Shown: one piece after another, positions 13,001 through 60,100 of the stretch
How positions within the stretch are numbered: the stretch's first letter is position 1
Layout: each line of letters opens with the position of its first letter
DNA from: Octopus vulgaris
Taxonomy: Eukaryota
Reading direction: 5' to 3'
Length of the DNA stretch: 64,000 nt
Assembly: GCA_951406725.2 (NCBI GenBank)
Contig: OX597840.1
Span: 25,916,001 to 25,980,000, forward strand
The notes under the pieces: generated by a model
Databases searched by the model: none
Told to the model about the DNA's origin: nothing
What the model saw: only the letters and a program-made list of their open reading frames with translations
Translations under genes and position numbers: made by a program

Positions 13001-16000
13001 CCAATCTGTAGCCCTGGCAACGATCACGCTCGGATGTGCTTAATTATGATGATAATAAAAATAATTGAGTTACTGCCAACATTTTATGGTCACTGTGGTT
13101 AATTATAGCAGAAAGAAAAAAACAAAAAAACCTATGGTCGAAACCGTCCATCCATGTCTTCATTTTTTGGTCAGGTAGAAATAAATTTCTTTTCATATTT
13201 TTGTTAATTTACGGAGATGTACTTGCATAGCAAGTGACCTGATCTGAGATCGTGTGCTGGAATGAAAACAATTGCAGCGTGGCAGGTGTTTGTAAGCCAT
13301 TTAAGAAACACACAAAAGCCATTCGATTCACTTCAACATTTAAGTTTAATTTGTCAAAATATTTTCGTCGCTTTAAGACCACGACCTCTTCACTGACAAA
13401 AATCCAAGATGCAGCATGGATTTTTGTTAGTGAACAGGTCGCGGTCTTAAAGCGAAGAAAATATTTTGACAAATTAAACTTAAATGTTGAAGTGAATCGA
13501 ACGGTTTTTGTGTGTTTCTTAAATGGCTTATAAACACCTTCCATATATATATATATATATAGCATGGATTTTTGTCAGTGAACAGGTCGCAATCTTAAAG
13601 TGACGAAAATATTTTGACAAATTAAACTTAAATGTTGAAGTGAATCGAATGGCTTTTGTGTGTTTCTTAAATGGCTTATAAACACCTTCCACGCTGCAAT
13701 TGTTTTGTTAATTTTCTTACCTGAAAATATGTTTCCAGCAATCTGAAGCATGGCTTCCCATCTCCAGGCCAATCAGCATCACAACATCCATGCTGAGGAT
13801 GTGCGCAGCATGAAGACGGACCAGTTTCTGTCGGTTCGGTAAAATCGGTGCCTTTAGAGGAAGCTTACGGTCGTGCAAGACCGAACGTTCTTCGATGACA
13901 CAAGACGAGCTGGCCAACAGAGCAAACACTGCAGCACATCGTTTTTGGAGACCTTTATGACAACAACAATAATAATAATAATAATAATAATAATAATAAT
14001 GATAATAATAATAATAATTTCAAATTTTGGTACAAAGCCAGCAGTTTTGGAGGTGGGGATATTCAATTACATTGACCCCTGTGTTCAACTGGTACTTATT
14101 TTATCAGCCCCATAAAGATGAAAGGCAGAGTAGACCTTGGTGGAATTTGAACTTAGAATGTACAGTCGGACGAAATGCTGCTAAGTGTTTTGCTTGGTGT
14201 GCTGGCGATTCTGCCAGCTTTCCACCTTCCATAATAAGGAAGGAAGGAAGGATGATCGATGTCTCATCTCAAGATACAACCACGAGATAACATTGAGAAG
14301 TGTATTAATTTAATCAACCATTCATATTCTATCTGTTGTGTTAGAAATAATTATTATAATCACACACACCTATACAAACATACACAGACTTATTAGAGTA
14401 AATAATTATTGCCTGAGTGTATCAAGAATATAAAACGACTGCTGTGTCTGGGGAGAGTCATTTTCTTTTTGTGCCTTATAATATAACACACTCACCGGTA
14501 AAATTTCCACTTTTTTTTCTTATTTTTATTTTCCTAAAATTTTCGTTGCGTCTTGCAACCTTTTCAATGGTTTTGACTCTAAAACTATTGAAAAGGTTGC
14601 AAGACGCAAAGAAAATTTTAGGAAGATAAAAATAAGAAAAGAAATTGGAAATTTTACCGGTGAGTGTATTAAATAATAAGGTACAAAAAGAAAATTACTC
14701 TGCCCAAACACAACAGAATATGCTTCAACACACAAACTCAAATAAAGAATCTTGCAAACCAAATCCCAAAACGAAATAAAACGACTGCCATTTAAAGGTG
14801 TATTATAAATTTGGTAATAAAAGAATTATTAAACTAAAAACTTGGTTTTGCACCTTATTTATATCTATATATATATAAAAGAGAGGTTGTGTGCTGTCTG
14901 TCTCCTACAATTTAGATTCCTAACTACTCCCACATTTTGCAGTGCAGTTTAACCAAAACCGGGTATCTTACAGTCGTAATTCATATCGAGCCCTTCTGGG
15001 TATTAGCGTGCGTCTACGATGAGTCTACGATTTTAAAAGAAATTTACCATAATTTTTTTCCCGTTTTTAATGCATTTTTGGCATATATAAGGGAAGTAAC
15101 TCTCTAAAAATTTATTAAATCTCAGAACGTAAAAAGCTACAGTAACAACCCCTCCTTTGTGGTTAGCCATATTGAGATGGCTATTATACTTTACATCTCT
15201 AAAAACGCTTATATAGTTATTTCCCTTACAAACCCGAGCAACGCCGGGCGATACTGCTAGTTTATATATAAAACACTACAATTAGCCGTCATTTTTGATG
15301 GCCCAGGGTCAGCTCGTAAAACAATAATTTGAAACAAATGTGATATAAAATCTTACCCAGAATGCAACATAATTTAGCCGCCTTCTGCAAGCCGGTCAAA
15401 CTCTGGCATATAGCTTCACGGGCCTTCATGCTCTCCTCCCTCGCTCCTTCGGTGCCGAGCATTAGCGCCAGGCTGCTGGTTATACCACAGGAACTCTTGC
15501 CATTGAGGAGCACGGCAAGAACATCAAGCATACCATCCCAACAAGTAGAGAGTATCCTCTTTGCCAGTCTTTTACCTTCGGGGAAGAGAGTAATTAACGA
15601 GGGTGATAACGAGGATGACGAAAATAACGATGACGATAATGATAACAATGACGACGATGGTGGTGATGATGATGTTAATGATGGTGATGATGATGGTGAT
15701 GATGATGATAGTGGTGGTGTGATGATGATGATGATAATGGTGATGATGATGATGATGGTGATGATGATGATGACGATGATGATGATGATGTTGACAAGAT
15801 TTGACGATGGTGATGATGATGGTGATGATGATGATAGTGGTGGTGGTGATGATGATGATAATGGTGATGATGATGATGATGATGATGATGATGACGATGA
15901 TGATGATGATGTTGACAAGATTTGACGATGATAATGATGATGGTGATGATGATGGTGATGATGATGATGATGGTGATGATGATGGTGATGATGATGATGA

Positions 16001-57100: not shown

Positions 57101-60100
57101 TAATCTTGCATTATTTCAAGATGTTACTGTTTACTTTTGGAATGATGTTGTAGGTCAGGTGTGAGGGGTCAAATCTGGCAAGTTTGAACACGAAACCGGT
57201 TGAATATTTTGGCCAGATATGATTGGTTTATGGCTCAGTGGTTAGTGTTAGGCTCACGATTGTGACATGGAGTTTGATTCCTGGACTGGACTGCGTGTTG
57301 TTTTCTTGAGCAAGACATTATTTCATGTTGCTTCAGTTCACTCAGCTGTAGAAATGAGTTACGACGTCACTGGTGCCAAGCTGTATCGGCCCCTTTGCCT
57401 TTCCCTTGGATAACACTGGTGGCGTGGAGAGGAGAGGCCGGTATGCGTGGGTGACCGCTGGTCTTCCATAAACAACCTTGCCTGGACTTGTGCCTCAGAG
57501 GGGAACTTTCTAGGTGCAATCCAATGGTCATTCATCAGATGTAGTGAGCAAGAGAGGAGACTGCATTGGTGTAAATGTGTGATGTTTATGGATAATGATA
57601 GTTGGTCCTTTGTCATCTCATTTTGAGATCGGTCTTCAGTATTTCTTCCCATGTCTTCCACCCATTTTAAGTAACCAGTTATTCTTTATGCAACTGTTCT
57701 TATCCATATGCATCACATGACCAAACCAGTGAGCAGTCTCCTCTCTTATATATGACATCTAATTCCTCTTGGGCCTAACTTTTCCCTCAATACATTAGCG
57801 CTCTTTTGCACATCCAGCTTGAGTCTTCGTGTGTCCTCTGTATTCAGAACCGACATGGTTTGTATAGCTGCATCATAGAGCCTTACTTTTCACTCAGAGA
57901 GAGCTTTGGTTGCCAACAAACTATTTCCGTTATTTATGACTAACACACACACATTTTATTAAAAATCTGTAAAGACATGTTACTCAGTTTCATGTTCCTA
58001 TTTGTCAGACACTTTTGTGTGTGTGTGTATATATATATATATATATAGGGAGAGTTTACGGAAAAAAACAAAAGACGAAAAACAGGTGGTGTACAAAACA
58101 AACAGATGTATTAGTATAATGCTCAGGATTAGAAAAGGTCTTTTATGTTTCGAGCCTACGCTCTTCTGCAGAAAAAAAAGGAGAGAAAAAAATGTGTGTA
58201 GTGGCTACCGATCTATCATGGCATATATATATATATATATATATAAAATTATAATTGAGGGTATCTAAAAGCTACCACCATGCTAGAGATAGCAGTCAAA
58301 ACTTGACTCTAAAACCACATCAAATCGCATGGTGGTATCTTTTAGATACCCTTAATTATAATTTTAATAATAATTATTACCTCTAAGGTTTTTATTGCCA
58401 TGTTGGCCACTTGATATGATTGGTATTTTAAAATAACGATCTTATCCTTATAAAGTGTTTCCATGTCATTGATTAATGTAAATGTATTGATTTGTGTTTT
58501 AATTAATTAATTTCTGTTTTTGCATCTCTTTATTATTTTCGTTCAATTAGCATAACTCTGTCTTTCCCTTCGACGTGCGTCACTTATGCAGCAAAGCTCA
58601 AGATCTCGAGGACCGAGTGATGCAAATTTGCCGGAATTTCGATAAGATCAGTGTGGAAAAGGTATTCTTGCATTTTGAAACGGTCAACCTTTTTCCTTGT
58701 TTTTTAAATTTTTTTTTTTTTCCTTTCATGTGCTATACTTGTAGACTCAATGTCCATCCCATCAAATTAATCCAGCCAGGTTCTATGGGCATCGACCTAC
58801 ACTTTCACTGGACAACGTTCAGAAGAGGGTTATCCTTGTACTCAACCTCTATGACAAAATTGACGCTAACAAGGTACTTTTACTGTATATTATTCCTTTA
58901 GGGGTTTAGCTTCTCAATGTTACAATCCATCTTTTCTCTATAAATATATAAACGTCTTCATCTTGTTCTTCTTTCTAATTAGGCTCACAGGGTCAGCAGA
59001 TTTAAGGGGAAAGGGGCTAGCTGTTACTATTGACCCCCAGGTACTTGACTGATATTTTAATTTTAAGGTGAAGTTGACCTCAGCATGATTTGAACCCAGA
59101 GCTGGAAGAAGTACCTTTAGGCAATTTTTTTCTGACGTAACAATTCCACCGTCTTGTTGCCATGAATCATTTTGTTCCCTTTTTACCTTTTGTTTTTGTC
59201 GTTAGGCTGTGACCATGCTGGAGCACCATCTTGAAGGGTTTAGCCACACAAAGTGACCCCAGTATATATTTTTTATGTCTGGTAATTAATTTTGTTGGTC
59301 TCTTTTGCCAGACTGCTAAGTTATGGGGGGACATAAAAGGTAAAGACCCCTTTTGGTCATGAATGACCATGGGATTGCACCTAGAAAGTCCCTCCCCCCC
59401 CTCCGAGGCACAAGTCTGGGCAAAAATTGTTTATGGAAGACCAGCGGTCACCCTGTTTACAGCCAGCTGGAGCATTTCGATTACTCTTTTTGTTGACATT
59501 GTTTTGAATTAATCATGCATTATCTCATAGCTTCAAGACTGCAATGATGTGACTGTTTACTTTTAGGATGATATTGTAGGGTAGGTGTGAGAGGTTGGAT
59601 CTGGCCAGTTCGAACATAAAAATAAGAATAATTTCTGGGCTGGATATGGCTGGTTTAAATGCGAAAAGGTTAATTTGCATATTGGTCTTAGATTCATCGT
59701 TATGACACCAAAACTAATTTCTTATAATGAAATTGGTTTGTTATTCAAACACATTCCAGCTATGACCATCCTGTTTAATTTCACCCTTGGCATCATACAC
59801 GCAGAATTACATTACTCAGTGTATTTGTTTATGTTATTTAAAGATGGTAGGGTTGGTTTGGGAGAGATTTAGCTGCTATTTCTAGCAGATTAAGCAACAG
59901 CACAGAGCAATGGTTCTCAAACATCCAAGACCTGGATATTTTTTAGGGAGCTGCACCAAAAAAAGTAAAACAAAAGTTTTTATTTATAGAAGGAAAACTG
60001 CCAGGGTCACGTGTTCCTGGGAGCAGTGGTTGAGAACCCCTTGGGTGTAGAGACTCCACTTCATAATGAGTTGTTAATAAGACACTAGGATAGCAGATGG

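Follow-up and report, generated by a model that had tools for sequence, protein, structure and literature searches.

The window analysed here, a stretch of 64,000 nucleotides (nt) at 25916001-25980000 of one contig of the 2.8-Gb Octopus vulgaris assembly within which all positions are counted, contains copies of four repeat families that share the layout of a minimal type I hammerhead ribozyme of the kind carried by Penelope-like elements (PLEs). A preliminary description made from the letters alone had noted this layout (stem I, a 7-nt core, one extra purine, stem II, GAA, a very short palindromic stem III, UH and the closing strand of stem I) in otherwise dissimilar repeats, and had proposed that the tertiary pair between core positions 3 and 8 takes three different complementary forms under selection on catalysis. 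On re-reading the letters all the claimed cores were present in the common layout, and this layout and the family majorities agree in pointing to minimal type I folds such as PLEs carry. Positions 3 and 8 were found paired as G-C, U-A and C-G, and comparison with other loci of the assembly (denoted by L numbers) places all three states among homologous elements.

The G3-C8 family is represented by an insertion at 13209..13706, which is 91% identical to the end-repeat (pLTR) of the full-length PLE at L393 and is made of an inverted arm plus tail (13209-13406, minus strand), a direct copy (13407-13543), a (TA)n tract and a second direct copy (13561-13706). The second direct copy holds an intact hammerhead (13571..13621, plus strand; core GTGAACA at 13578) with an extra G, a 5-bp stem II, AAUAUU (AATATT in the DNA) as stem III, U17 and a 7-bp stem I. 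In the first (13423..13473, plus strand; core at 13430) the G10.1-C11.1 pair is lost through a C to A change, which likely leaves it inert. Both of these copies had been recognized previously, but a third one on the minus strand (13350..13400, core from 13393) had been overlooked; its core, GTGAAGA, sets G3 opposite G8 through a C8 to G change, so that the 3-8 pair is broken and the copy is likely inert as well. The tail (13211..13300, minus strand) covers codons 1-30 of the PLE protein and is 83% identical to the start of the L393 open reading frame (ORF). The U3-A8 insertion (14439..14778) comprises two inverted arms set head to head, of which the plus arm carries a tail, and corresponds to the pLTR of a decayed sister PLE. 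Its plus-strand hammerhead (14585..14621; core TTGAAAA at 14588) has a 3-bp stem I and has lost the G10.1-C11.1 pair, again by C11.1 to A, and in that of the minus arm (14534..14570; core from 14567) the second stem I pair is mismatched. The tail (14694..14774, plus strand) encodes the N-terminus of the sister PLE, as seen by tblastn with the 1309-residue ORF of L391 (67% over 27 residues, E 4e-5); when the window was compared with five PLE proteins, no remnant of reverse transcriptase (RT) or endonuclease was found except this ORF-start match at 14694.

The C3-G8 element (22522..22931) consists of a tRNA-like head (22600-22672), an (AAT)n tract and a body with the hammerhead that reaches 22931, together with a 3' fragment in inverted orientation (22522-22599, minus strand). 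Its hammerhead (22847..22892, plus strand), with the canonical core CTGATGA at 22852, is intact except for stem III, which is CpG-decayed. The fourth family, referred to as U6 from the base at position 6, is present as two pLTR copies. That at 41389..41468 (plus strand; core CTGTAGA at 41440) is truncated by another repeat one base past N17, with the 3' strand of stem I absent, and that at 58028..58215 (minus strand) lies between (TA)n tracts and contains a hammerhead at 58176-58139, the core of which (CTGCAGA, from 58171) has C6 instead of the U6 of the family core CTGTAGA, and the palindrome of which has decayed. The truncating repeat forms a head-to-head pair at 41466-41685, and its fuller copies elsewhere (L101, L114) contain a hammerhead-like motif of the C3-G8 type in which loop II is long.

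Of the eight copies examined in the window, only those at 13578 and 22852, both on the plus strand, are intact or nearly so, the stems of the other six being broken or predicted to be buried. Fold prediction for a transcript across each cluster gives the stems of the 13430 and 14588 copies, which are buried within long inverted repeats, a probability of 0.00-0.03, and those of 13578 one of 0.1-0.25. The 13578 hammerhead has stems I and II within its minimum-energy structure (z −2.2), and the minimum-energy folds of G-C and C-G copies include both stems; stem I is just 3-4 bp long in the U-A and U6 families. A search of the window with Rfam, which had been suggested for the genome, gave no match at gathering thresholds, to a hammerhead or any other model, and at E≤10 hammerhead families were absent among the best 150 of 254 weak matches. 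Those listed were microsatellite hairpins that scored with microRNA families.

All four motifs of the window belong to high-copy repeats, for which the searches returned 1,274-2,631 first-look candidates per motif, 40 being scored. Family majorities were taken from de-duplicated copies at homology-selected loci, and in each of them positions 3 and 8 are complementary, as previously proposed: G-C in 163/179 copies, U-A in 66/67, and C-G in 51/56 copies of the 22852 family and 53/56 of the U6 family. The three-way junction and the G10.1-C11.1 and A15.1-U16.1 pairs are also present in the majorities, together with U4, G5, A6, A9, G12, A13 and A14 in the G3-C8, U3-A8 and 22852 families. The NUH triplet is kept, with N17 being U, U, U and A/U across the four majorities, and none of the five family majorities available has G as N17, although this had not been imposed there. 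In the G3-C8 family, variants reaching at least 12% are confined to loop II, CpG sites and the flanks, with the core, GAAA and stems I and III free of them. The family of the 41440 and 58171 copies departs from this pattern at position 6, which is U in 33/36 copies and also in 28/30 loci of an autonomous relative. Thus, the description of this family as a hammerhead-shaped repeat holds, but its consensus has U at position 6 rather than C or U; it is a hammerhead-like variant, the catalytic activity of which is doubtful by analogy with known core changes. Two further groups were met: an older, low-copy G3-C8 subfamily (L261-L268) with different stem I, II and III sequences and pairing kept, and a separate U3-A8 family (L206:8667, minus strand, and L165) with a 6-nt palindrome and without the extra base.

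Matches that did not depend on these families were sought with a descriptor that fixes G5, A9, G10.1, GAAA, U16.1 and a non-G N17, leaves positions 3, 4, 6, 7 and 8 free, and requires a stem II of at least 4 bp, a stem I of at least 3 bp and a palindromic stem III. The window contains 3 matches (4 with one palindrome mismatch permitted), whereas 60 dinucleotide shuffles made block by block gave a mean of 0.05 (0.17 with the mismatch) and at most 1, and the reversed sequence gave none. In a genome sample of 59 stretches of 10 kb (590 kb), picked by round coordinates, 22 matches were found, and positions 3 and 8 are complementary in all of them (15 C-G, 5 U-A, 1 G-C and 1 A-U, the last with the core AGGGTTA and looking like a chance match). 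The corresponding shuffles (8 for each of two settings) gave means of 1.25 and 1.75 matches, with 5/24 complementary, and the reversed control gave 0. The motif is, therefore, far commoner in real than in shuffled DNA, as had been anticipated, and a chance origin is excluded for the four families. When each family is counted once, 6/6 are complementary (3 C-G, 2 U-A, 1 G-C; permutation p 0.017), with the proviso that the families are not fully independent. The suspicion that searches anchored on CUGANGA would overlook most such motifs was also borne out, with only 6 of the 22 sample matches fitting that consensus and 16 being missed. By rough extrapolation from the 590-kb sample, approximately 97,000 intact-looking motifs would be present genome-wide; for the G3-C8 pattern, a count on the forward strand of the whole genome gave 5457 matches against 2020 for the reversed control, and therefore several thousand copies. 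A core with U4 replaced by C, CCGACGA, belonging to a very common relative of the U6 family, makes up 6 of the 22 sample matches (L202:2574, L204, L211, L221, L224, L255).

Association of the motifs with ORFs for GIY-YIG endonuclease and RT, another point raised initially, was established for the G3-C8 and U6 families and not for the 22852 family. In copies of the G3-C8 repeat with long upstream sequence, a GIY-YIG frame lies approximately 1 kb upstream on the same strand (Pfam, 25.7 bits), and the link was found in 9/10 loci obtained by protein search and in 6/6 longer stretches of that family. L393 has the G3-C8 hammerhead on both sides of an ORF with one stop and one frame break, and L389 contains a 1025-residue open frame with YVDD and GIY-YIG (25.4 bits), the RT region of which aligns to a RVT_1-positive PLE (E 4e-9); the Pfam RVT_1 model itself gave no match in L389 or L391. 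The whole of the 58171 copy aligns with the end-repeat of a very young RT and GIY-YIG PLE with frames of up to 1200 residues (L339-L344; RVT_1, 1.6e-7), in which the U6 motif stands behind the endonuclease in 28/30 loci and on both sides of the ORF in 5/6 long copies. For the U3-A8 family, several copies continue into the start of an ORF that shares 45-51% identity with the 1309-residue L391 protein, only decayed 5' remnants being found. By eye, a CX3-4CxxC linker precedes GIY-YIG in L182, L339, L389 and L391, the Neptune/Nematis criterion being CX2-5CxxC. In all four families the 5' ends vary and the 3' ends are nearly fixed; three of them often occur as inverted pairs, three have microsatellites as targets and two have an optional tail. 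The inverted 5'-truncated copies, the optional tail and the (TA)n targets observed here are counted among the hallmarks of PLEs in the accessible text of PMC8557442 and PMC11167929. On the sequence evidence, the G3-C8 and U6 families are identified as PLE end-repeats, as is, with less certainty, the U3-A8 family. Two routes to complete elements were abandoned: the tail peptide, which led past the tail in 0/40 loci (40 taken from the 150 matches listed), and a pair of direct repeats 3.5 kb apart (L375), which proved to be a local duplication without a PLE ORF.

Several observations on related copies may be recorded at this point. A further U3-A8 hammerhead stands behind the intact ORF of a 753-residue RT and GIY-YIG PLE (L182:4416-4460, L181, L183, L184); in it no extra base follows A9 and one base is missing around stem III/N17, and its sisters L186, L187 and L198 have a full 8-nt palindrome. 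Tandem G3-C8 arrays were found at L027, L022-L024 and L029, with 16 cores in L027 at a period of 167-177 nt, and would be the setting in which dimer cleavage is most likely. Stem I of G3-C8 hammerheads is preceded, at a distance of 13-14 nt, by a branch-point-like word, a pyrimidine tract and AG (L030:1470-1495, L393:4700-4722), and most short G3-C8 copies begin at that stretch; the intron of Drosophila Penelope likewise ends at stem I, according to the available text of PMC4209133.

Unlike these families, the 22852 family has the hammerhead fold but is not known as a PLE end, and takes the form of a tRNA-headed short repeat. The tRNA-like head, a term that refers here to A- and B-box-like words recognized by eye, lies upstream in 34/57 copies, and a hammerhead follows 33/41 heads; ARAGORN calls no tRNA at the head of the window element.

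The swap at positions 3 and 8 is best followed among elements with related proteins. The G-C (L393), U-A (L437, L448) and C-G (L391) hammerheads all lie approximately 90-135 nt upstream of homologous ORF starts, with identities of 36% over 113 residues between U-A and G-C and of 54% over 814 residues between G-C and C-G. Because the motif holds the same place before homologous ORF starts, the swap amounts to homologous covariation, and on this sequence comparison it occurs within one element lineage and not only among unrelated repeats, which upholds the covariation of the pair as first described. In an alignment of 7 related representatives of this clade, from which stem I was left out as being out of register, no change is seen at U4, G5, A6, the extra G, G10.1, C11.1, GAAA or U16.1, while positions 3 and 8 read GC in four, CG in two and UA in one, and two stem II pairs have changed on both sides. 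Pairing is found in 95% of the cells, and the covariation score was reached by 0/500 shuffles. The C-G state of L391 belongs to a young family (L391:7385-7432 and L397-L402, with 1310-residue ORFs) in which position 9 is C; the older relatives L030 (minus strand, 755-802) and L435 keep A9.

Taken together, these data indicate that the 3-8 pair probably takes the forms C-G, U-A and G-C because the few masters that generate copies were selected for a cleavage-competent fold. In such a scheme, a master element would be transcribed across its two end-repeats, and two copies would pair through their short palindromic stems III, probably aided by the protein of the element, to complete the junction. 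Slow cleavage at NUH (AUU in the G-C and U-A families, GUU or GUA in the others) would trim the tandem precursors, insertion would mostly use uncut RNA, so that genomic copies would keep the whole hammerhead, and the inserted copies would then decay neutrally. Activity would be expected to be best with C3-G8 and U3-A8, reduced but real with G3-C8, and weak or lost with U6, C4 or C9. In the available text on the anole PLE, uncut RNA is the insertion substrate, and the C3G/G8C double change partly restores cleavage in a PLE hammerhead that requires the PLE protein (PMC11167929); other PLE hammerheads are described as cleaving as dimers and at low rates (PMC4209133).

Selection on catalysis, as originally put forward, is thus favoured by covariation of the pair within a homologous clade, but a number of findings weigh against it. 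Other core positions are fixed differently in sister families with long intact ORFs, namely U6 (28/30 loci) and C9 (L391, L397-L402), and C4 is found in 8/39 copies of one group, an abundant relative. If cut RNA served as the template, copies would be expected to begin at N1.1, but of the 82, 10, 27 and 18 unselected copies that represent the four families none begins at the predicted cut site; the closest begins at +3, and in the G3-C8 family most begin 40-61 nt upstream of the cut site. As a duplex, the palindromic stem III has marginal stability (AAUAUU, −0.2 kcal/mol; AAUU, +2.2), most window copies are decayed or predicted to be buried and are likely inert, as would follow from neutral decay after insertion, and the shuffle control of the 7-sequence clade alignment ignores relatedness. 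No long ORF was found among the copies of the U3-A8 family, and no RT and GIY-YIG ORF was linked in 30 loci of the 22852 family, for which no genome search aimed at a partner was made. As far as the accessible parts of the literature go, a natural A6C hammerhead, of interest for U6, cleaves at less than 0.1 per min (PMC3088659) and is strongly impaired with respect to Mg2+ (PMC7151607), and in a full pairwise scan all changes of the CUGA turn gave low activity save C3G/G8C, the sole rescuing swap (PMC9901934), from which low activity may be expected, by analogy, of U6 and C4 cores. For the anole PLE, hammerhead mutants leave in vitro insertion unaffected and none of the reads terminates at the cut site (PMC11167929).

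Several of these points would also be accommodated if the fold were kept as a structural signal, i.e. a site for binding or folding by the PLE protein or for translation control before the ORF, with cleavage dispensable and the core drifting within the tolerance of the fold. The fixation of U6, C4 and C9 in young families that spread well, the position of the motif approximately 100 nt upstream of the ORF start, and the retention of the whole motif in copies that never start at the cut site are in line with this possibility, as are the insertion of the anole PLE without cleavage (PMC11167929) and the spread of Naiads without canonical hammerheads (PMC8557442), in so far as these are described in the available texts. 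However, three complementary 3-8 states are hard to account for without an active fold, the pair is described in the accessible part of PMC9901934 as belonging to the catalytic pocket, with a swap that rescues cleavage, and N17 is non-G in every family majority, so that a purely structural role is regarded as possible but rather unlikely. Of similar, tentative standing is the proposal that all the variant cores (G3-C8, U3-A8, U6, C4 and C9) might cleave within the protein-RNA particle of the element, in a protein-assisted reaction that relaxes the core and leaves the 3-8 pair strict.

The number of masters also has to be considered. With thousands of copies derived from a few of them, copy counts are not independent, a single G-C lineage was found (with two subfamilies), and other core positions do change; the motifs could, therefore, be relics carried along with successful masters, in a few of which the complementary states arose by chance. 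Such neutral inheritance is judged improbable, since every swap takes two matching substitutions and G-C is two transversions away from both other states, and it has further to contend with 6/6 complementary families, with compensatory changes in stem II and with the invariance of the other core letters between proteins that are just 36-54% identical. More improbable still is that the motif is loose enough to be matched at random in AT-rich, palindrome-rich repeats: the stems are indeed short and AT-rich, shuffles give occasional matches, and the AGGGTTA match looks like one of these, but 22 matches against approximately 1.5, the fixed place in PLE end-repeats and the covariation among homologous elements argue strongly against it. 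Selection of the masters for a cleavage-competent fold, therefore, remains the preferred explanation.

Outside the hammerhead repeats, the window contains at 31-552 (plus strand) an open frame that resembles a fragment of a Helitron/Pif1-type helicase. Other open frames, at 8203-8706 and 20266-20979 (both minus strand), resemble exons of a host gene, in which case the hammerhead repeats between them would be intronic. Two long, near-perfect hairpins (53865-54035 and 54065-54180) give sub-threshold scores with microRNA families and resemble remnants of fold-back repeats.

PLE-associated hammerheads with a short stem III, which cleave as dimers, were reportedly the subject of a very large survey by Lunse, Weinberg and Breaker in 2017, in which G3-C8 or U6 forms may be included. 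The minimal hammerheads of PLEs described by Cervera and de la Pena in 2014 (PMC4209133) have, in the text available, the same type I layout, with an extra base between A9 and G10.1, a G10.1-C11.1 pair, a short palindromic stem III, a location in pLTRs, dispersed single copies and opposite-strand pairs. A U3-A8 variant is also reported there, with about 1,300 matches in Schistosoma and one family with the core UUGAAAA; the consensus is given as CUGANGAH, and the alignment rows available show C-G, U-A and U-G at positions 3 and 8, with no G3-C8, U6, C4 or C9 family and no cephalopod. Natural U3-A8 covariation and a change at position 6 (A6C, with low but detectable activity) were described by Perreault et al. 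in 2011 (PMC3088659), the position-6 change found here being to U; whereas the variants of PMC3088659 and PMC7151607 are single and mostly microbial, those of the octopus are family-wide states of high-copy retroelements, and neither account, as far as available, includes a natural G3-C8 or A6U. The C3G/G8C mutants of Frangieh et al. 2024 (PMC11167929) and Roberts et al. 2023 (PMC9901934) carry the same swap, engineered in those studies and natural and family-wide here. The tandem G3-C8 arrays and the tRNA-headed C3-G8 repeat resemble the non-coding passengers of PLEs described in PMC7229834, bioRxiv 10.64898/2026.07.22.740005 and PMC6765202, namely retrozymes without long terminal repeats and, in Schistosoma, repeats akin to short interspersed elements, to the extent that these accounts are accessible. 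In contrast to retrozymes, which are non-coding tandem units expressed as circular RNA, the units of the G3-C8, U3-A8 and U6 families include PLE ORF sequence or lie next to it and are, therefore, PLE ends and not stand-alone retrozymes.

The diverse repertoire claimed initially is real as regards hammerhead folds in several variant families, but U3-A8 had already been published, also in PLE hammerheads (PMC4209133, PMC3088659). Already known, too, are the minimal hammerheads of PLE end-repeats with their extra base and palindrome and, as a laboratory rescue, G3-C8. In the searchable literature, which leaves out the Lunse survey and most subscription papers, no natural G3-C8, U6 or cephalopod hammerhead family was found, but only laboratory swaps, U3-A8 and A6C, and the natural G3-C8 and U6 families are provisionally regarded as new.

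As far as their published accounts are available, PLE hammerheads cleave poorly in vitro (PMC4209133), one purified PLE inserts without cleavage (PMC11167929), and hammerheads are missing from some PLE clades. Three complementary 3-8 states in a homologous series represent comparative evidence of selection on the active-site fold in living elements, and the G3-C8 family is the natural form of a swap previously obtained at the bench. Ribozyme censuses anchored on CUGANGA undercount such motifs, as the random sample indicates, and if cleavage of all the variant cores were protein-assisted, approximately two thirds of the roughly 100,000 motifs of this genome would be ribozymes invisible to searches of that type. 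The young autonomous U6 and C9 elements of the same genome provide a natural panel for judging which core letters matter.

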